Part shown: positions 11,896-61,810 of the stretch, piece after piece
Numbering within the stretch: position 1 is the stretch's first letter
Layout of the letters: each line of letters opens with the position of its first letter
DNA from: an uncultured Elusimicrobiales bacterium
GTDB lineage: Bacteria > Elusimicrobiota > Elusimicrobia > Elusimicrobiales > Elusimicrobiaceae
Assembly (NCBI GenBank): GCA_934667625.1
Contig: CAKUMH010000001.1
Location: 24,792 to 88,791 of the forward strand
Direction of reading: 5' to 3'
DNA: 64,000 bases
Position numbers and translations under genes: made by a program
Notes under the pieces: model-generated
Told to the model about the DNA's origin: nothing
Databases searched by the model: none
Seen by the model: the letters and a program-made list of their open reading frames with translations, nothing else

Positions 11896-12300
11896 ACCCT
11901 GAACTTGATTCAGGGTCTAGCGATTGGGTCGTTTGCTGTTGGCGTTATTAACGGCAAACGACGAACGGCCGAACGACACAAACGGTAGATTCTGAAACGA
12001 GTTCAGAATGACGGTGCTTTGGTTAATAACGGCAGCGGCGAGATCCTGGACTACAACACTCCAGGATGACGACCCCTTGGGCGGACCCCAGAATGACGGC
12101 GCTTTGGTTAATAACGGCAACGGCGAGATCCTGGACTACAACTCTCCAGGGTGACGACCCCTTGGGCGGACCCCAGAATGACGGTGCTTTGGTTAATAAC
12201 GGTAACAACGAGACCCTGGACTACAGCACTCCAGGGTGACGACCCCTTGGGCGGGCCCCAGGATGACGGCGCTTTGGTTCATAACGACAGCGGGTAGGAA
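11896..12300. repeat. REP-like hairpin-module cluster, including an 85-bp tandem array of at least three full copies plus a partial fourth (12004-12300)
   Basis: Unit starts at 12004, 12089, 12174 and 12259 (period 85). Each unit has a cagaatgacgg...ctttggttaataacgg spacer plus a gatcctggactacaacNctccagg(g/a)tgac hairpin; a degenerate copy and a ccctgaacttgattcaggg hairpin lie upstream. Confidence 0.8.
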
Positions 12301-12378: not shown

Positions 12379-12966
12379 CTAGTCTTGCTTGGTTACCGAG
12401 TTGGCGGTGCGATCAGCTTCGGTTTCCGCATAGGTTTCTTTGCCAGCGAAGTCAGCGCAGAACGCTTCGTCATCATTGCTCGTGCCTTTCACGCAAACGG
12501 CGGGCTGAGTGGATTCATAGCGTTTCTGGATGGTGTACGTATACTGGTTCGTACCCACGCGGGTCGCGATGACGCCATTGGTGTTACCCGTAGCAGCGTT
12601 CGTACCGATCAAGGCGATAATAAAGCCGTTCTGGCCGGCGCCGCAAGCGTCGGTAGAGCTGGCGACAGCCTCGGTAGATTCCGCTACGGCAGTAGGCTGG
12701 GTGCCTTTGGTGCAGTACACGCTGGAACCCGCAGTAGCGTTAGCCGGGGCAACGTCCAAGGCGCTCCAGGTCTTAGCATAGTGACCCGTTTTCATTTTGT
12801 AGCGCTGTTGGGCATTGACAACAGTACCAATTAACGTATCAGCTTCGGAAGCGCGGGCGCGTTCCACCGCTTTGAAGTAAGCGGGCATGGCCATGGCGGC
12901 CAAGATACCGATGATCAACACGACCACCAGTAATTCAATCAGGGTGAAACCCTTCTTATTATTCAT
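12379..12966 (-). CDS. Type IV pilin-like (prepilin) protein
   Basis: MNNKKGFTLIELLVVVLIIGILAA: a class III signal with G|F cleavage and N-methylation motif, a hydrophobic alpha1 helix, a variable Cys-containing C-terminus, and a GGAGG RBS. Confidence 0.8.
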   Translation of the reverse strand: MNNKKGFTLIELLVVVLIIGILAAMAMPAYFKAVERARASEADTLIGTVVNAQQRYKMKTGHYAKTWSALDVAPANATAGSSVYCTKGTQPTAVAESTEAVASSTDACGAGQNGFIIALIGTNAATGNTNGVIATRVGTNQYTYTIQKRYESTQPAVCVKGTSNDDEAFCADFAGKETYAETEADRTANSVTKQD

Positions 12967-13077
12967 AAAACCTCCTACAGTTTTATATATAAGTTTGGTT
13001 TTGTAGTCCCGAGGACTACATCTTCATTCTAATAAGGAATGAGCGCATTGTCAAGCCCTAAATTTAAATTTAGGTCC

Positions 13078-28865: not shown

Positions 28866-28915
28866 GAGAAGGTTGCCCTTTTGCGCGGTTTTTAAAAGGC
28901 GGGCTAAACGGAAAA
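28866..28915. repeat. Copy 1 of a conserved ~45-bp intergenic element (gccctttgcg..gtttttaaaaggcgg..taaacggaa)
   Basis: Near-identical to 39078-39122. Confidence 0.5.
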
Positions 28916-29007
28916 GGCCGATGCGCTTTTTGCCCGTTGCCTGGATATGTTTTCCAAAGCACAGCGGAATTTGCTAGAGTATAGTATCTTTTATGAGGAG
29001 GCCCCGA

Positions 29008-32381: not shown

Positions 32382-32906
32382 TTATTTAAAGCAATAGGTT
32401 TCGTAGGAGCTGTTGGCGCGACAGGGGGCGGTGGTGTTTGTTTCCAGGCGGCACACCCGTTGGGGTACGCTTCCCCGCGAATGATAGGCAAAGCACAGCC
32501 GTGCATTGGAGGCGAATTTAATCTCTAATTCAGGCACATCGGTGGAGGAATAATCCATACATTGCACCGTTCCTATCACATAGTCACGCAACATGCAAAC
32601 GCCATTTTTGCCAAAAGTAATTTGATTAAAGGTACCATAACCTTCGGCATTGACGGGAGTGGCCGGGCCAAAATTTAAATCTAACGCGCTGAAATCCGTA
32701 GTGTATTGACCGTTGGCCATAAAGTATACTTGTTCCGCTTTGGCAATAGCAGTGCCCATTTCCACCAACTGCTGGTAGCGCGCACGGGCGACTGCGGTTT
32801 GGTACTGGGGCAGGGCCACTGCGGCAAGAATGCCGATGATAAGGACGACGACAAGAAGTTCAATAAGGGTGAAACCGCCTAAACGGCGCGTAGTAACGTT
32901 TTTCAT
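32382..32906 (-). CDS. Type IV pilin-like (prepilin) protein
   Basis: MKNVTTRRLGG|FTLIELLVVVLIIGILAA; AGGAAGG RBS; the 16-codon upstream extension in the ORF track (TTG start) is the palindromic 5' UTR, not coding. Confidence 0.8.
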   Translation of the reverse strand: MKNVTTRRLGGFTLIELLVVVLIIGILAAVALPQYQTAVARARYQQLVEMGTAIAKAEQVYFMANGQYTTDFSALDLNFGPATPVNAEGYGTFNQITFGKNGVCMLRDYVIGTVQCMDYSSTDVPELEIKFASNARLCFAYHSRGSVPQRVCRLETNTTAPCRANSSYETYCFK

Positions 32907-33005
32907 CACAACCTTCCTTTTTGATAAATTTTTCGCATACTCAAAATTTATCAAAAAAAAAAACGATTACAACCCTTTTATATTTTGCCGGCCCAAAAAC
33001 AGCTG
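32880..33005 (-). promoter_or_regulatory. Conserved pilin 5' module (promoter region, palindromic UTR and leader-peptide codons), copy 1 of 3
   Basis: ~130 bp near-identical to 38690-38815 and 60530-60665; contains the inverted repeat ttgataaatttt...aaaatttatcaa. Confidence 0.5.
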
Positions 33006-33014
33006 TTCAACAAG

Positions 33015-33200
33015 GAAGAGATGCTGGACTAAAACACTCCAGCATGACCTTTGTTTGATGACGGACACGACACAAAGGGTAGATCCTGAATCAAGTTCAG
33101 GATGACCACCTTTGTTAGATAACAACGAGATCCTGGACTACAACCTTCCAGGATGACGGCTCTTTTACGGGCCGCCAGTTCAGCATAACGACCTTTGTTT
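33015..33200. repeat. REP-like hairpin-module cluster
   Basis: gatgctggactaaaacactccagcatgac, ggtagatcctgaatcaagttcaggatgac, gagatcctggactacaaccttccaggatgacgg and ccgccagttcagcataacgac. Confidence 0.6.
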
Positions 33201-35740: not shown

Positions 35741-36454
35741 TTACCACGTTAAATAAAAGCGCAGGCGTACCAAAAAACCCACCAGCGCCGACCCGATTAC
35801 CCCAATATAAAAGGCCGCGTGGGAAACGTCCATCAGGCGGATTTTGCGGGCGTACACGCACGCGGCATACCAAACCACCAACAGCACCGCCCAACGCCAC
35901 CCGGGCAGCAGCATAATTAAAAAGAAAATGGCGCGCACCATCATTAAGAGCCAGCGTTCGTCAAAGGTGGGGTAATTGGCGCCGTAGCGGTCCTGCTCAA
36001 TGGAAAAAATGAACCAGCCGATGACGCGCGTGGCCGTTACAAGCCCCACACAAAAAATCACCCAGGATTCGGCAAAAGGGTTGCCCGTTTCGTACAAGGC
36101 CTTAAACGGCACGCACAAGAACAAAAATAAAAGGTTGACGAAGGTTTTAACAAAAAAAGTGAGCACATAGCCGTGCCGTATTTTGCCGCCGAACTGGAAG
36201 TATTTATCCGAAAATACGTGAAAGGCGCAGCACATCAAAATACACAGCCAGCCGGGGACGTGGAACAAATCCAAAAACGGCCAGGACATCGTCCAATACC
36301 CGTAGCACAGCAAGAAAGCCCAAAACAAAAAGACGCCCGCATGCAGCACTAGCGCCCGGGGGCGGTTTTCCTGCTCCATTTGGTTAATCGTTTTGTGAAA
36401 AAACACGAAATCCGTCAAGAAAAAAGCCAAAAACAACCGCCAAAATACAATCAT
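35741..36454 (-). CDS. Polytopic membrane protein, function unknown
   Basis: 237 aa; about 7 hydrophobic helices, Trp/Phe-rich; 4-nt overlap with the upstream histidine kinase gene. Confidence 0.5.
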   Translation of the reverse strand: MIVFWRLFLAFFLTDFVFFHKTINQMEQENRPRALVLHAGVFLFWAFLLCYGYWTMSWPFLDLFHVPGWLCILMCCAFHVFSDKYFQFGGKIRHGYVLTFFVKTFVNLLFLFLCVPFKALYETGNPFAESWVIFCVGLVTATRVIGWFIFSIEQDRYGANYPTFDERWLLMMVRAIFFLIMLLPGWRWAVLLVVWYAACVYARKIRLMDVSHAAFYIGVIGSALVGFLVRLRFYLTW

Positions 36455-38160
36455 TTAGTCTCCTTGGGCAATGTAACGCAAAAGGTACTCCCCTGCCCGG
36501 GGGCGGACGTAACTTCCAATGTGCCGCCGTGCGCTTCTACAATTTGGCGGCTGATAAACAACCCCAGCCCGTAGCCGGATTTTTCCGGGTGGACCTGATG
36601 AAATTTTTTAAAAAGCCCCTTGATTTCCGTTTCGGTGAGGCCGATACCGCTGTCCGCCACCGACAGGTAGCAGTGCTGGGCGTCCTGCCAGGCGTGCACG
36701 CGCACAAAGCCTTTTTCGGTAAATTTAATGGCGTTGGAAACCAAATTCATCACCACACGCTGGAAAAGTTTCGGGTCGGCAGACAGCGAAGAAACTTCCA
36801 CCTGGGCGGAGAGTTCCAGGCCTTTTTCCCGCGCGGAAGGGGCCAGCGTGTCCGTCACGTTTTTGACAAGCGCCTTCAGGTCCACACTTTCTTTGTGGGG
36901 CAGCATCATGCCGGCTTGCACGCGGGACACGTCCAGCACGTCTTCCAATAGCGCGGATAAATTTTTGGCGGCTTGGCTCATCAATTCCAAGTATTGCTTT
37001 TTTTCTTCCTCGCCGGCTTTGCCGCTTTGCAAAATGTAGAGATATCCCTGCAAACCCATCAGCGGGGCGCGCAAATCGTGCGCGACGGCGCGGAAAACCT
37101 GCTCCTTCATTTCGCTCACCTGCGCCTGGAGCTGGAGCACTTGGTAATCTTTTAAATCCGCCGTCATTTTATTAAAGGAGGCGATGAGCTGTTTGAATTC
37201 CCCCCAACCGATTTCTTCGTCAATTTTTTCGTCCAAGTTGCCGCGGCTGACCTCTTTGGCCGCCTGTGAAAGGGCACCGATTGGTTCTCCCAAGCGCTCG
37301 GCAAAAGTCAGCGCGCCAAAATACGCCAGAGTGGCAATGGACAAGAGGAACAGGGCGATGATCACGTTGGTATAGTAAATACTGCGGTAGGCCTCGCTTT
37401 TGAGCTGCAAGACCGCCACATACGCCCCCAAAATGGGCGTGGGAGCAAAGGCGCCCACATACGTGTCCTGCGGGGTGTGCAGATTTTTAATCAGACGGCT
37501 TTTTGAGGCAAAGGCCGCTTGGAGAGCGGCGGCATCAAAAGCGGGTTTATACTGGTAATCGCTGGTGTAGATTTTGCCGTCTTGGTCCACAATGTAGATG
37601 TGACCCGTTACGCCGATACGCTGTTCCTGCACGCGGGATAAAAAGCTGAAAAAACTCATAATTCCGTACAGAAAGTCGCCGTTGGAAAGCGGGTAAATAA
37701 ATTCGCTAATCGGTCTGCCGGACACCACGTCAAAGCTGCTGACGGAGAGGCGAGGCTCTTGGCGAAGCTCCGCCAAAGAAGGGTCGCCTTGCAAGTCCAG
37801 CGCCGGGATTTGGTTTAACACCTGCTTGTCTCCCGTGCGGTAAAGCTCCTTTCCTTCCTTAGATAAAACCGCCAGCATCAAAAAATCCGGGTTTGCGTTA
37901 AGCGTTTCCTTTAGGAGCGCAGTGGGATTTTTGCGCGCATTTAAAATTTCGGCCAGTTTGGGGGCAAACGCCAGGCGCCAAGACAAATCTTCTATGTGCT
38001 GGTTCATGGAAGACGACACGATTTGCGCCAAATTGGCGTGCGTCTCCAAGATGTTGTCTTTCAAATGCACCTGATAGTAGGCCAAGAGCAACGCCATGGG
38101 AATAAGCGGCATTAACACTACGGCCAAAAACAATTTAAAAAGTTTTGAAAATAAAGACAT
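36451..38160 (-). CDS. Sensor histidine kinase (orphan; no adjacent response regulator)
   Basis: Two TM helices flanking a periplasmic region, a HAMP domain, HisKA H-box VAHDLRAPL, and HATPase_c G-boxes (DSGIGL, GYGLGL). Confidence 0.85.
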   Translation of the reverse strand: MSLFSKLFKLFLAVVLMPLIPMALLLAYYQVHLKDNILETHANLAQIVSSSMNQHIEDLSWRLAFAPKLAEILNARKNPTALLKETLNANPDFLMLAVLSKEGKELYRTGDKQVLNQIPALDLQGDPSLAELRQEPRLSVSSFDVVSGRPISEFIYPLSNGDFLYGIMSFFSFLSRVQEQRIGVTGHIYIVDQDGKIYTSDYQYKPAFDAAALQAAFASKSRLIKNLHTPQDTYVGAFAPTPILGAYVAVLQLKSEAYRSIYYTNVIIALFLLSIATLAYFGALTFAERLGEPIGALSQAAKEVSRGNLDEKIDEEIGWGEFKQLIASFNKMTADLKDYQVLQLQAQVSEMKEQVFRAVAHDLRAPLMGLQGYLYILQSGKAGEEEKKQYLELMSQAAKNLSALLEDVLDVSRVQAGMMLPHKESVDLKALVKNVTDTLAPSAREKGLELSAQVEVSSLSADPKLFQRVVMNLVSNAIKFTEKGFVRVHAWQDAQHCYLSVADSGIGLTETEIKGLFKKFHQVHPEKSGYGLGLFISRQIVEAHGGTLEVTSAPGQGSTFCVTLPKETK

Positions 38161-38224: not shown

Positions 38225-38716
38225 CTAGCGCAGGCGGTACACATTGTCGCCCCAAGCAGAAAGCTGGCCTGTCTTTTCCCCCAAGGAAGCACAAACCTTT
38301 TCCCCGGTTTTGCCGGCTTCGGCTTGGGAAGGATAACACAATTGATAGGTGGGGTAAAAATCAATAGAAAAGCCCGGGCCTTGCCAAAATACAGCGGGGC
38401 CTGAATTGGGGTTGTGCAGGTCCCCCACCGGGGTGTTGTAAATAATGGTTTGGTCTTGTTCGGTACGGGACGTGTAGGGGAAATCAATATCCAGCGTGTC
38501 CAAATCGGCGGTATACTGGCCGTTGGCCATATAATAGACCTGCTTGGCATTTACAATGCTTTTAAGCACGGGCAACACGCGCGCCACGCGGGACTTGCGC
38601 ACGGCTACTTCGTATTGGGGCAGCGCAATGGCGGCCAAAATGCCGATGATGAGCACAACAACTAACAACTCAATAAGCGTAAAACCGCCTAAACGGCGCG
38701 TAGTAACGTTTTTCAT
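38225..38716 (-). CDS. Type IV pilin-like (prepilin) protein
   Basis: MKNVTTRRLGG|FTLIELLVVVLIIGILAA; first ~35 residues identical to the 32382 paralog, C-terminus divergent. Confidence 0.8.
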   Translation of the reverse strand: MKNVTTRRLGGFTLIELLVVVLIIGILAAIALPQYEVAVRKSRVARVLPVLKSIVNAKQVYYMANGQYTADLDTLDIDFPYTSRTEQDQTIIYNTPVGDLHNPNSGPAVFWQGPGFSIDFYPTYQLCYPSQAEAGKTGEKVCASLGEKTGQLSAWGDNVYRLR

Positions 38717-38815
38717 GACGACCTTCCTTTTTGATAAATTTTGAGCATACTCAAAATTTATCAAAAAAAAAACGATTACAACCCTTTTATATTTCCCCGG
38801 CCCAAAAACGGCTTT
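38690..38815 (-). promoter_or_regulatory. Conserved pilin 5' module, copy 2 of 3, with a near-perfect 34-bp palindrome
   Basis: ttgataaattttgagcatactcaaaatttatcaa (15-bp perfect arms) lies directly upstream of RBS AAAGGAAGG and the ATG. Confidence 0.5.
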
Positions 38816-38819
38816 TCAA

Positions 38820-39050
38820 CAAGGAAGAGAGGCTGGAACCCTGCGGGCCGCTAGACACTCCTGCATGGCCCTTATTTAATAAGGGACATAACGACCCAAA
38901 AGGTAGATTCTGAAACAAGTTCAGAATGACCTCATAATGAAACGGCAAGATCCTGGACTACAACACTCCAGGATGACAGCAAAACAACAACAGCAAACAA
39001 CAAAACAACACATGCGGTAGATGCTGAATCAAGTTCAGCATGACCTTTTT
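38820..39050. repeat. REP-like hairpin-module cluster
   Basis: ggtagattctgaaacaagttcagaatgac, aagatcctggactacaacactccaggatgac and gcggtagatgctgaatcaagttcagcatgac, plus a degenerate ggaaccctgcgggccgc module. Confidence 0.6.
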
Positions 39051-39077
39051 ATTTTTTCATTATGGTTGGTTGTTTTT

Positions 39078-39122
39078 GTCGCCCTTTGCGTTGTTTTTAA
39101 AAGGCGGTTTAAACGGAATAGT
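39078..39122. repeat. Copy 2 of the conserved ~45-bp intergenic element
   Basis: tcgccctttgcgttgtttttaaaaggcggtttaaacggaata, compared with ttgcccttttgcgcggtttttaaaaggcgggctaaacggaaaa at 28866. Confidence 0.5.
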
Positions 39123-43317: not shown

Positions 43318-43414
43318 ATTTGGGTTTCTCCAAAATACAATATAGGTATATGATACCAATTTTTGAGTTTGTGCGCATAGAGCAACAAAAAGACAACGAC
43401 CACAACACAAGCGG

Positions 43415-43505
43415 CAGCTGGTGAAACAAGTTCAGCATGACGGGCTATTTTAACAACGGCGAGCTCCTGGAACCCCGCGGGCCGCCAGGCACTCCAGGAT
43501 GACGG
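43415..43505. repeat. Solitary REP-like module pair in a non-pilin context
   Basis: ggtgaaacaagttcagcatgacggg plus gagctcctggaaccccgcgggccgccaggcactccaggatgacggcc. Confidence 0.55.
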
Positions 43506-59750: not shown

Positions 59751-60215
59751 CTAACAACAGGCACAATAGTCATCATCAGTACTGTTTTTTACATTAAGTA
59801 ATTTGGCATAATCCATTGAATGTTTTACTCCACTGTCTATACAACTTTCATCATAGTTAACTACAAATTCATCCGAATCTAAATAGCATAGACAGACTCC
59901 TTCTTTCTTATACTGAGCAGAGGGAATACTGTTTGACTGGGAACTCGCATAATAATAGAAATCTTTTGTTTCTACAAATCCCTCCTCCTTACTACCAGCA
60001 ATAGAAATGTCCAATTCGTCCATAAAACAAATTTCGTCGCCACCTTTTGCCAAGCGACATACTCTATCTGCTTGAGCAATAGTTTTTAAATTACTCATCG
60101 CTTCTGTAAAACGGGACTTCGTAACCGCCTTGGTATATTGCGGCAACGCCACCGCAGACAATATACCAATAATGAGTACAACAACTAACAATTCTATTAA
60201 TGTAAATCCTTTCAT
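59751..60215 (-). CDS. Type IV pilin-like (prepilin) protein, AT-rich and apparently foreign
   Basis: MKGFTLIELLVVVLIIGILSAVALPQ; AGGAGA RBS; coding sequence visibly lower in GC than its neighbours; C-terminal Cys pairs. Confidence 0.8.
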   Translation of the reverse strand: MKGFTLIELLVVVLIIGILSAVALPQYTKAVTKSRFTEAMSNLKTIAQADRVCRLAKGGDEICFMDELDISIAGSKEEGFVETKDFYYYASSQSNSIPSAQYKKEGVCLCYLDSDEFVVNYDESCIDSGVKHSMDYAKLLNVKNSTDDDYCACC

Positions 60216-60339
60216 TTTTTTCTCCTTATTAATGCCTTTATATTTGAGCAAAACGGCCTTTTATGCGCGTTTTTATACGACAGATACATCCGGGTATGAC
60301 CACCGCGATTTATCAAAATCTTAACAAAAAACGATATTT

Positions 60340-60480
60340 TTTGCCGTCTCCCTGAACTTGGTTCAGGGTCCATCGGAACTTTGACTCTCTTGCGCTGGAT
60401 GCTGAAACAAGTTCAGCATGACGGCGTGTTTTGATAACAGCGAGATCCTGGACTACAACCTTCCAGGATGACGGCTCTTT
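60340..60480. repeat. REP-like hairpin-module cluster between the truncated pilin 5' module and the AT-rich pilin gene
   Basis: ccctgaacttggttcaggg, ggatgctgaaacaagttcagcatgacgg and gagatcctggactacaaccttccaggatgacgg. Confidence 0.6.
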
Positions 60481-60533
60481 TGTGGACCGCCAAACTTGCC
60501 AAGATGACGACTTAAAAAGAGCATGCGTAAAGC

Positions 60534-60565
60534 TGCCTAAACGGCGCGTAGTAACGTTTTTCATA
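60534..60565 (-). pseudogene. Truncated pilin gene: conserved leader codons MKNVTTRRLG only, then REP-like repeats
   Basis: Codons 1-10 are identical to the pilins at 32382 and 38225; the reading frame then runs directly into repeat modules; the conserved upstream module is intact (60563-60665). Confidence 0.5.
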
Positions 60566-60665
60566 ACGACCTTCCTTTTTGATAAATTTTTCGCATACTC
60601 AAAATTTATCAAAAAAAAAACGATTACAACCCTTTTATATTTTGCCGGCCCAAAAAATGGTACAA
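60563..60665 (-). promoter_or_regulatory. Conserved pilin 5' module, copy 3 of 3
   Basis: ccttcctttttgataaatttttcgcatactcaaaatttatcaaaaaaaaaacgattacaacccttttatattttgccggcccaaaaa is near-identical to copies 1 and 2. Confidence 0.5.
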
Positions 60666-60699
60666 AAAGGAAAGGCAACGGCCACAACAAATAAGGAAA

Positions 60700-60870
60700 A
60701 GATCCTGGACTAAAACTCTCCAGAATGACCTTATTTAATAACAACAACGACAAAACGACACAAAGGGTAGATGCTGAAACAAGTTCAGCATGACGGTCTA
60801 TTTTAACCACGGCAAGCCCCTGGGACCCTGCGGGCCGCCAGTTCAGCATGACGACACCTTGTTTAGTTGC
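60700..60870. repeat. REP-like hairpin-module cluster
   Basis: aagatcctggactaaaactctccagaatgac and ggtagatgctgaaacaagttcagcatgacgg, plus a degenerate ggaccctgcgggccgccagttcagcatgacg. Confidence 0.6.
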
Positions 60871-60922: not shown

Positions 60923-61810
60923 ATGAACGATTTTTTGCTAGAGGATTTTAAAAATCACCTCACGTTTGAGCGGCAACTATCCAAAAACACCGTGCTTGCG
61001 TACGGAGCGGACACGGAAAGTTTTTTGGAGTATTGCGCCGCCAACGAGCTCCCGCCCGAAAAAGCCACCCCGGAGTTTTTGGACCAATACAACTACCAAC
61101 TCCGCGTCGTGGAAGGGCTCCAACCCGCGAGCGTTTTCCGCAAATTGGAAGCCGTCAAAAGCTTTTACAAGTTTCTGCTGGTGGAGGAGAAAATTCAGGA
61201 TGACCCCACCCGTTTTTTAAAATCGCCCAAACTTTCGCAAAAAATTCCCACCCAACTCACCCGCGAGGAAATGGACCGGCTGCTTTCCTATCCGGCGGAA
61301 AAATTTGACGAAATCCGCACCGTGGCCATTATAGAACTCTTATACGCGGCGGGTCTGCGCGTCAGCGAGCTGATCAACCTGCGGTTGGAAAACGTCAACA
61401 CCGAGGAGGGCTGGGTGTTGGCCTTCGGCAAAGGCGGCAAGCAGCGTTTTGTGCCCATTCATCCGCAAGCTTGCGCGCGCATCAAGGCCTATTTGGACGT
61501 GCGCGAGGCGCATTTTGCCGCCAAAAATGTGGGCTCTGAAGTGTTTTTAAACAAAAACGGCAAAAAAATCAGCCGCGTTTGCGTATGGAAAGACCTGGCC
61601 GCCCTCGGGCGCAAGGCCAACATTTCGCAACCGCTTCATCCGCACCTGTTCCGCCACACCTTTGCCTCGCACTTATTGCAGGGCGGGGCGGACCTGCGCA
61701 GCTTGCAGGAAATGCTGGGACACGCCAATTTGACCACCACCCAAATTTACACGCATTTGGATGTGGGCGACCTAAAAAACAAACACAAAAAATTCCACCC
61801 GCGGGGCTAA
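60923..61810 (+). CDS. Tyrosine site-specific recombinase XerC/XerD family
   Basis: C-terminal catalytic domain HPHLFRHTFASHLLQGGADLRSLQEMLGHANLTTTQIYTHL (R..HxxR..Y); 295 aa. Confidence 0.85.
   Translation: MNDFLLEDFKNHLTFERQLSKNTVLAYGADTESFLEYCAANELPPEKATPEFLDQYNYQLRVVEGLQPASVFRKLEAVKSFYKFLLVEEKIQDDPTRFLKSPKLSQKIPTQLTREEMDRLLSYPAEKFDEIRTVAIIELLYAAGLRVSELINLRLENVNTEEGWVLAFGKGGKQRFVPIHPQACARIKAYLDVREAHFAAKNVGSEVFLNKNGKKISRVCVWKDLAALGRKANISQPLHPHLFRHTFASHLLQGGADLRSLQEMLGHANLTTTQIYTHLDVGDLKNKHKKFHPRG

Follow-up and report, generated by a model that had tools for sequence, protein, structure and literature searches.

In the vlp genes of Mycoplasma hyorhinis, a conserved 5′ block that includes the signal peptide precedes a divergent mature part. 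A homopolymer in the −35/−10 spacer turns transcription of M. hyorhinis vlp, maa2 and vmm on or off (PMC2268961), and in fim2, fim3, fimX and fimN of Bordetella pertussis and Bordetella bronchiseptica a homopolymer lies between an upstream element and the −10 region, where its strain-variable length alters transcription (PMC1891110). Here we describe a cassette of 130–150 bp, present in three copies on the minus strand of a 64-kb stretch of DNA from an uncultured Elusimicrobiales bacterium (hereafter the window), that comprises a putative promoter, a ribosome site and the signal-peptide codons of type IV pilin-like genes. As the best explanation of its structure we propose, tentatively and with slightly less than even confidence, a promoter-plus-leader cassette that is homogenised by gene conversion, carries a DNA-level operator over its −10 element and start site (+1), and has a T-tract spacer of variable length.

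Like the Bordetella fim genes, the window contains paralogous pilus-subunit genes with a conserved, homopolymer-bearing promoter element. The Bordetella tract is poly-C, however, its promoters are activated by BvgA and lack a palindrome, and its fimbriae are of the chaperone-usher type, whereas here the tract is poly-T, the products are type IV pilin-like and switching is only a candidate property. Similarly, the Mycoplasma vlp genes encode lipoproteins and have no dyad over the −10 element, whereas here the products are pilins and a dyad element is present. A dyad site that lies over the core promoter and is repeated across a set of genes is familiar from the LexA, Fur and lac O1 operators; unlike these, one arm of the palindrome described here appears to double as the −10 element, and its 12-10-12 geometry matches none of the boxes that we compared (7-1-7 for Fur, TTGAT-N4-ATCAA for FNR, and LexA). 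Likewise, non-reciprocal exchange between pilin paralogues recalls Neisseria pilE/pilS, but there variable 3′ cassettes move into a single expressed locus, whereas here the 5′ part appears to be homogenised and each gene keeps its promoter and mature domain. A promoter cassette shared by a surface-fibre gene family, in which a simple-sequence tract accompanies an operator-like dyad, is thus a known kind of system; the arrangement and the phylum are new, and in the literature on Elusimicrobium pilins we found no account of their promoters.

What do the three copies share? All of them have in common some 100 nt of DNA upstream, together with the leader codons. Exact searches of the window recovered the upstream block GGGTTGTAATCG with its T run, as well as the first 30 coding nucleotides, in each copy, and alignment extends the identity upstream of the T tract over ∼60 nt between copies 1 and 2 and ∼40 nt with copy 3. 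Searches and alignment alike uphold the ∼130-bp module with a palindrome that the preliminary description had placed at three loci. As the 5′ end of a pilin gene, however, the module stands at copies 1 and 2 only; copy 3 is not a pilin gene, but degenerates after ∼11 codons (about 11–14) and runs into hairpins resembling repetitive extragenic palindromic (REP) elements, giving an open reading frame (ORF) of 84 residues (60313..60564). Between the tract and the ATG, 42–44 of 46 nt are identical among the copies. The 11 leader codons, MKNVTTRRLGG, agree at 33 of 33 nt between copies 1 and 2, and the copy 3 remnant matches at 31 of 33. Codons 12–30 of copies 1 and 2 encode the same protein sequence (GFTLIELLVVVLIIGILAA) from DNA that is identical at only 41 of 57 nt, so that DNA-level identity ends at the prepilin cleavage site: there are no synonymous differences in the 11 leader codons, versus 16 differences in the next 19. 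The near-identity over ∼35 codons claimed earlier therefore shrinks to codons 1–11, and was also at odds with that description's own coordinates. Nor do the paralogues diverge fully after ∼55 codons, as had been stated, since the copy 1 and copy 2 proteins are 67% identical across 79 residues and divergent beyond.

The comparison supports short-patch gene conversion as the process that keeps the cassette copies alike, because the leader codons are synonymously identical while the adjacent protein-identical codons differ. Another strain (L036) provides an example. Its copy 3 locus matches the window over ∼900 nt with two isolated single-nucleotide polymorphisms and one cluster of six substitutions within 17 nt, in leader codons 4–9 (L036 ∼75–95; window 60539–60555), which changes the leader to MKNITTGRLG; we read this cluster as a short gene-conversion patch. 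Gene conversion had been suggested by the preliminary description, and the synonymous identity and the L036 patch bear it out. Upstream, the identity is limited by arrays of REP-like hairpins, and downstream by the leader/mature junction.

Relatives of the cassette were sought through a protein search with the N-terminal 68 pilin residues. The leader form MKN(V/A)(T/N)xxR(L/F)GG is common among the Elusimicrobia-like pilins found in this way, and the same search revealed a second leader family, M(S/D/N)KIYQK...KNAG. DNA was obtained from the loci of seven of the proteins hit, which are unbiased for the palindrome, and from a metagenome scan and a viral-contig scan in which the arms were fixed. 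These sources, among them pig-gut, Hadza and goat-cecum samples, yielded 18 distinct cassettes from several species and non-homologous loci; eight (seven from the metagenome scan and one from the viral-contig scan) were retrieved with the arms fixed by the search pattern, and the unbiased set comprises 10 sequences. In the 318 kb of fetched DNA the palindrome occurs solely at pilin 5′ ends, and a half-site search revealed no additional exact sites. A scan of GTDB genomes with the upstream block gave one relevant match, the Elusimicrobiales pilin locus L006, the other eight being chance matches (L005, the one inspected, falls within coding sequence, and another five belong to Bacteroidota records). 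Because L006 carries the upstream block and a T11 tract without the palindrome, block and palindrome can occur separately. Had other pilin loci of the same genome lacked the module, the preliminary description would have regarded it as a recent duplication only. The cassette was indeed not found at two further pilin-like genes of the window (N-termini near 12951 and 14246), but several other gut Elusimicrobia have it at pilin loci that are not homologous, and for this reason we regard it, on comparative grounds, not as a recent duplication alone but as a 5′ module that is both old and widespread, used by one type IV pilin-like subfamily in gut Elusimicrobiaceae. Finally, we note that the viral-contig scan gave one more pilin-linked cassette and nothing phage-specific. 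This cassette (L046 9233–11430; leader MKNANMGRLGG, 9-nt centre) comes from a contig that IMG/VR classifies as viral, with its pilin ∼470 nt from a tyrosine integrase gene; the region may adjoin a prophage, or the contig may be misclassified.

Across loci the cassette shows a recurrent order of an A-rich stretch and then GGG, TTGnnn, a tract of T8–T13, and TGnTA(A/T)A(T/A)T. The last of these occurs in 20 of 21 related promoters (L014, the exception, has TAACTT), and it is also found in promoters that lack the palindrome (L006 and L023b). The TTG is conserved, with relatives reading TTGACT, TTGTAT, TTGTTT, TTGTTA or TTGCCT, and the distance between the −35 and −10 elements is set by the length of the tract; spacers are 15–16 bp in the window and about 12–17 bp in the relatives, and no T-tract cassette exceeds the 17-bp optimum. 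In L044, a manual count gives TTGACT-N18-TGaTAAATT (18 bp). Of the 17 palindrome-bearing cassettes listed, 11 have 38 nt between the −10 element and the ATG. From this layout we infer a sigma-70-type promoter with an extended −10 element. The organism uses promoters of this type, because the pilin with its N-terminus near 12951 has the canonical TTGACA-17-TAGAAT (13026–13054, minus strand); this pilin has a strong Shine-Dalgarno (SD) sequence and no cassette, and it may be the major pilin. The preliminary description had placed the palindrome between the promoter and the ribosome-binding site, and overlooked both the T10–11 tract and the overlap of arm and −10 element; instead, the left arm coincides with the inferred extended −10 element, and transcription is predicted to start at the centre of the palindrome.

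Other promoter assignments fared less well. Many pilA genes use sigma-54 promoters, but the GG-N10-GC motif is not at the right spacing when judged by eye. For a sigma-28-type −10 element (GCCGATAA) the GATAA core alone matches, and there is no TAAA at N15. Neither TATAAA nor TGTAAT, taken as a −10 element upstream of the T tract, is conserved in relatives. In addition, some 25 nt upstream of the inferred −35 element and ahead of the A-rich stretch there is a conserved GTTTTTGG(G)C(C/T)GG motif, a possible UP-element-like or activator site.

Where would transcription begin? Three independent relatives, L024, L041 and L044, have the ATG of the pilin within the centre of the palindrome, 6–7 nt after the −10 element (TAAATT), without an SD sequence; translation of the right arm, AAAATTTATCAAAAA, then gives KIYQK, which is found as a leader motif in at least 14 database pilins. 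In L024 the former SD sequence is lost, the former ATG is now ATA, and the upstream ORF (uORF) is fused through the former SD. We take this arrangement to imply leaderless mRNAs. Because these relatives have their ATG at the centre without an SD sequence, the window cassettes probably also start inside the palindrome, with the left arm untranscribed. A start at the predicted A would therefore leave a ∼32-nt A-rich leader that contains the right arm only. The relatives resemble leaderless mRNAs in that their ATG follows 7 nt after the −10 element without an SD sequence; in contrast, the window copies keep an SD-led pilin ORF, and have at the 5′ end only a non-conserved uORF of 10–11 codons. This uORF opens with an ATG at the predicted +1 in the palindrome centre, reads M(R/L)KIYQKGR(SL/SS/L), and ends in a stop codon that overlaps or abuts the pilin ATG (ATGA or TGATG). 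It could couple translation, but is probably incidental because it is missing where the relatives' centre reads GTATAC. A conserved uORF was accordingly rejected: the loop ATG and the 10–11 codon ORF are present in the window and absent from relatives with GTATAC and other loops.

The palindrome itself, which occurs three times in the window versus zero times expected from 100 shuffles, has the 34-bp length and the arms of 15 nt (copy 2) and 12 nt (copies 1 and 3) reported for it earlier. With the flanking T5/A5 the arms reach 18 and 15 nt, and with its T/A flanks the copy 2 palindrome spans 40 nt (38728–38767). Among the cassettes, 90% of cells are paired, versus 35–59% in controls slid by 1–3 columns, and the covariation score was reached by none of 500 shuffles. 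The "n" of TGn, the most informative position, is not read by RNA polymerase; it pairs as A-T in 13 cassettes, as T-A in L030 and as C-G in L045, the last two both from the protein-based retrieval. The first centre position also covaries (G-C in eight, A-T in three). Apart from the "n" position the arms are nearly invariant, and the centre varies in sequence but hardly in length, with 10 nt in all of 17 cassettes except L019 and L046, which have 9 nt. The symmetry of the palindrome is clearly maintained. The half-site centres are ∼22 bp apart, roughly two helical turns. Conserved dyad symmetry, fixed half-site spacing and overlap with the inferred promoter, as looked for in an operator, are all found. 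We propose that the palindrome is most likely a DNA-level operator over the −10 element and start site, at which a dimeric regulator would co-regulate the cassette-bearing pilins. An operator for a dimeric regulator had been suggested before; its dyad symmetry and fixed spacing stand, while its geometry does not, since it lies over −10/+1 and not in the gap between promoter and ribosome-binding site. Comparison with the Fur, FNR/CRP, LexA, Rex and ArgR boxes, made without a model, gave misfits of spacing or sequence.

Several observations weigh against this proposal. The window promoters match consensus at 8 of 12 positions of the core hexamers, have spacers of 15–16 bp, and were missed by a consensus promoter scan. 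No regulator candidate is conserved among the neighbouring genes across loci, and no regulator gene was found with the palindrome upstream. A hairpin predicts compensated changes, whereas an operator accounts for them only if its regulator co-evolved. The conservation of the arms is in part a matter of ascertainment, since the arms were fixed by the search in 8 of the 18 cassettes, and five of the 10 unbiased cassettes (L014, L019, L029, L044 and L045) have one or two uncompensated mismatches in the 12-nt arms. As for the T tract, the lengths are read from assemblies, in which homopolymer length is error-prone, and the T tract upstream of the −10 element of Mycoplasma agalactiae vpma was shown experimentally not to switch (PMC2268961).

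The T tracts of the three cassettes are the only homopolymers of at least 9 nt in the window, and their length differs between assemblies of the same locus. The copy 2 locus has T10 in the window and in L001, L002 and L004, versus T12 in L003; four otherwise near-identical orphan cassettes (L026, L025, L027 and L023) have T9, T10, T11 and T12, respectively; and the palindrome-less pilin promoter L023b/L027b has T12 or T13. A homopolymer of at least ∼8 nt within the inferred core promoter and between-strain polymorphism of its length, two marks of a contingency promoter, are thus both observed, and the tracts may be phase-variable spacers.

How else could the palindrome be explained? If transcription began upstream of the T tract, the transcript would carry a U run, a hairpin and an A run in its 5′ untranslated region (UTR), which might stabilise the mRNA or position the ribosome. 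The 121-nt regions do fold better than shuffles (z = −4.2, −2.7 and −1.8), and the compensated arm changes in L030 and L045 and the G-C/A-T covariation at the first centre position also speak for a stem. However, the candidate −10 element upstream of the tract, TGTAAT, has no −11 A and reads TGACTC or TGTTTT in relatives, and the TTG of the −35 element is conserved where it would lie. The loop, moreover, is held at 10 nt even with an unpaired centre, and a GC-rich terminator-like hairpin abuts the left arm in L041. The leaderless relatives have their ATG in the loop without an SD sequence, and these relatives, together with the identity of left arm and −10 element, suggest that the two arms are not both transcribed. 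The SD sequence of the window copies is outside the stem, and with Rfam only tRNAs reached the gathering threshold, an E-value scan adding sub-threshold miRNA-like noise. We therefore consider an RNA hairpin improbable, and with it the earlier idea of an mRNA structure that sequesters or positions the ribosome-binding site. An intrinsic terminator was also rejected: the stem is A/T-rich, the order of T run, hairpin and A run on the pilin strand has the wrong polarity, and two terminator scans did not report it. A structure in the DNA would need no protein: a cruciform, extruded by the AT-rich palindrome under negative supercoiling, could hide the −10 element, and a hairpin might also increase slippage in the adjoining T tract. 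The hairpins predicted in the DNA (−8 to −16 kcal/mol; z = −3 to −9.5), the compensated changes, and perfect 40-bp palindromes in some relatives despite quite different centres (GAGTATACTC and ATTTATAAAT) fit such a structure, but arm mismatches are tolerated at L014, L029, L044 and L045. In a variant of this explanation the right arm would form a second extended −10 element on the other strand (TTCATA-17-TGaTAAATT) that competes with the pilin promoter. A reverse-strand TTCATN does lie 17–19 nt from the mirrored TGnTAAATT in most loci; this antisense "−35", however, is the complement of the ATG-AA start context and hence forced, and nothing consistent lies antisense, copy 3 alone facing a gene, xerD. 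Taken together, we judge a protein-independent structure or a mirror promoter quite unlikely.

The right arm and the T tract might also have no regulatory role, with the promoter spread by conversion, the palindrome perfected by templated (quasi-palindrome) mutation and the tract length drifting neutrally. Gene conversion appears active, promoters with an extended −10 element can function despite a poor −35 element or poor spacing, and the vpma tract provides a precedent for a tract that is not a switch. Yet 12 of 15 cassettes from different species have an unchanged right arm, whereas the neighbouring centre and the spacer between SD and ATG vary freely; the arm is kept even when it is coding, and the tracts are, as noted, the sole long homopolymers of the window. 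The lack of a regulatory role seems unlikely to us. Highly improbable, in our estimation, is a recombination core of the 13-8-13 layout known from loxP/FRT and the mycoplasma vsa/vpma sites, at which a tyrosine recombinase would shuffle pilin promoters. Such a site is called to mind by the 34-bp inverted arms around an asymmetric centre, by the XerC/D-type gene beside copy 3, and by the position of the cassette at 5′ ends within a variable family of surface proteins. The three sites, however, share one orientation and bracket essential genes (rpsF-ssb-rpsR-rplI, recA and clpC), which recombination between them would delete. All other assemblies retrieved keep this gene order. The copy 2 locus is present in four other assemblies, the copy 2 pilin is encoded on long ENA metagenome scaffolds, and the copy 3 arrangement recurs in other assemblies. 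The recombinase looks like a housekeeping XerC/D protein and each copy already has its own promoter; direct orientation, conserved synteny and a promoter at every copy led us to reject a recombinase site or shufflon.

Returning to the cassette with an operator over its promoter, we propose the following model. An A-rich stretch with GGG and the −35 element TTGTAA would be held at a distance from the extended −10 element by the T10–11 spacer, and transcription would start in the palindrome centre, giving a ∼32-nt A-rich 5′ UTR that begins with the right arm and leads through the SD sequence to the 11 leader codons, whose peptide would be removed by prepilin peptidase. Short-patch gene conversion between paralogues, bounded by REP-like repeats and the leader/mature junction, would keep these parts alike. 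The palindrome would work on DNA and not on RNA, as two half-sites for one dimeric regulator that, by occupying −10 and +1, would co-regulate all cassette-bearing pilins. Because the T tract fixes the −35/−10 distance, which ranges over 13–17 bp across alleles, strain-to-strain changes in its length may tune or switch each copy separately. A more ambitious proposal, which we consider rather doubtful, is that the cassettes form a contingency-locus system for pilin-like surface proteins of gut Elusimicrobia, in which slippage of the T tract sets the on/off state or expression level of each copy and the common dyad provides an override through a regulator or a supercoiling-dependent cruciform; the hairpin beside the tract could raise slippage. 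The positions of all features are collected in Table 1.

Table 1. Positions of the cassettes, their parts and associated elements in the window, and of the central-ATG leaders in relatives
Feature	Copy 1	Copy 2	Copy 3	Other positions	Strand	Basis or remark
Cassette	32874..33023	38684..38832	60532..60660		minus	Copy 2: ∼60 nt upstream block, T10, palindrome, SD, 11 leader codons; copy 1: same layout except T11; copy 3 (orphan): ∼40 nt upstream block, T10, palindrome, SD, leader remnant, then REP-like hairpins
Fused pilin-like gene	32382..32906	38225..38716			minus	
GTTTTTGG motif	33002–33014	38812–38824	60648–60660		minus	Also in L028, L006, L045
Inferred −35, TTGTAA	32967–32972	38776..38781	60624–60629		minus	TTG conserved in relatives
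T-tract spacer	32953–32963 (T11)	38763..38772 (T10)	60611–60620 (T10)		minus	
Palindrome, 34 nt, TTGATAAATTTT-N10-AAAATTTATCAA	32921–32954	38731..38764	60579–60612		minus	Search and symmetry scoring
Inferred extended −10, TGaTAAATT (left arm)	32945–32953	38755..38763	60603–60611		minus	Relatives
Predicted start A, in palindrome centre, 7 nt after −10	32938	38748	60596		minus	Homology to L024, L041, L044
uORF, 10–11 codons	32907–32938	38714–38748	60562–60596		minus	
SD sequence, GGAAGG	32912–32917	38722..38727	60570–60575		minus	Outside palindrome; sequence inspection
Leader-peptide codons, MKNVTTRRLGG	32874–32906	38684..38716	60532–60564		minus	End at G↓F cleavage site; alignment
Promoter-like element, T6 + TGtTAAGAT				60318..60331	minus	Of pilin 59751..60215; homologous to palindrome-less L023b/L027b promoters
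REP-like hairpins				11973–12293, 33006–33200, 38820–39055, 43402–43488, 60383–60492, 60690–60850		
KIYQK leader, ATG in palindrome centre				L024 224–264; L041 2986–3020; L044 2986–3020	L024 reverse	

The REP-like hairpins fall into two or three families (GAGATCCTGGACTACAAC..TCCAGGATGAC; GTAGATGCTGAAACAAGTTCAGCATGAC; CCTGGGACCCTGCGGGCCGCCAG). Arrays lie upstream of all three cassettes, and three 85-bp tandem units (12004–12293) come after the pilin near 12951; similar hairpins are found beside cassettes in other species. In L027 (7083–7910), inserted REP-like units separate the leader MKNVRMSRLG from G↓FTLIELL without a change of frame, resulting in a pilin ORF of 276 residues with a 108-residue leader, and several database pilin leaders contain REP-derived peptides, for example CHPELVSGSS and MLKQVQHD. 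The REP-like elements of window copy 3 occupy the same leader/mature junction, and there the ORF ends after its 84 residues. The junction seems to be a hot spot for insertion and recombination. A further repeat, CC(T/C)TTTGCG..GTTTTTAAAAGGCGG..TAAACGGAA, occurs as a 40-nt direct repeat of 85% identity at 28877–28916 and 39082–39121; both sites are intergenic, and one is just past the REP-like array upstream of copy 2.

Three pilins of the window have PF07963 on record and match the TIGR02532 prepilin N-terminal domain with 27.3, 28.4 and 31.4 bits (cut-off 16.3); the motif RLGG↓FTLIELL is seen, and the G↓F(T/S)LxE motif with a hydrophobic N-terminal helix marks them as type IV pilin-like. The copy 1 pilin gene is followed by a terminator-like hairpin (32324–32302) before the rpsF operon. 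A dCache-HAMP histidine kinase gene (36451–38160, minus strand) starts 64 nt past the copy 2 pilin gene on the same strand, and a terminator scan detected no terminator between the two; it adjoins copy 2 only. The pilin gene 59751..60215, which lies 320 nt downstream of copy 3, has its own promoter-like element, an SD sequence and a short leader, MKG. On the other side of copy 3, the XerC/D-type gene (60923–61810) scores 295.8 bits against a generic tyrosine recombinase model (cut-off 279). The RecA protein of the window shares 91% identity with its counterpart in Candidatus Avelusimicrobium faecicola and 84% with that of Elusimicrobium minutum, which places the organism among the uncultured Elusimicrobiaceae.

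Elusimicrobia are common yet poorly understood gut bacteria with many type IV pilin-like proteins. At a practical level, the cassette and the REP-like repeats break metagenome assemblies at pilin loci. The succession from SD-led to fused to leaderless KIYQK leaders provides a natural series of a 5′ UTR turning into coding sequence. If our proposals are correct, a −10 element that serves as one arm of its own operator would be an unusual promoter design, and the cassettes would constitute, to our knowledge, the first phase-variation system described in this phylum. The shared cassette, with its T tract and its dyad over the −10 element and start site, would then offer testable handles on the variation and co-regulation of surface filaments in the host.

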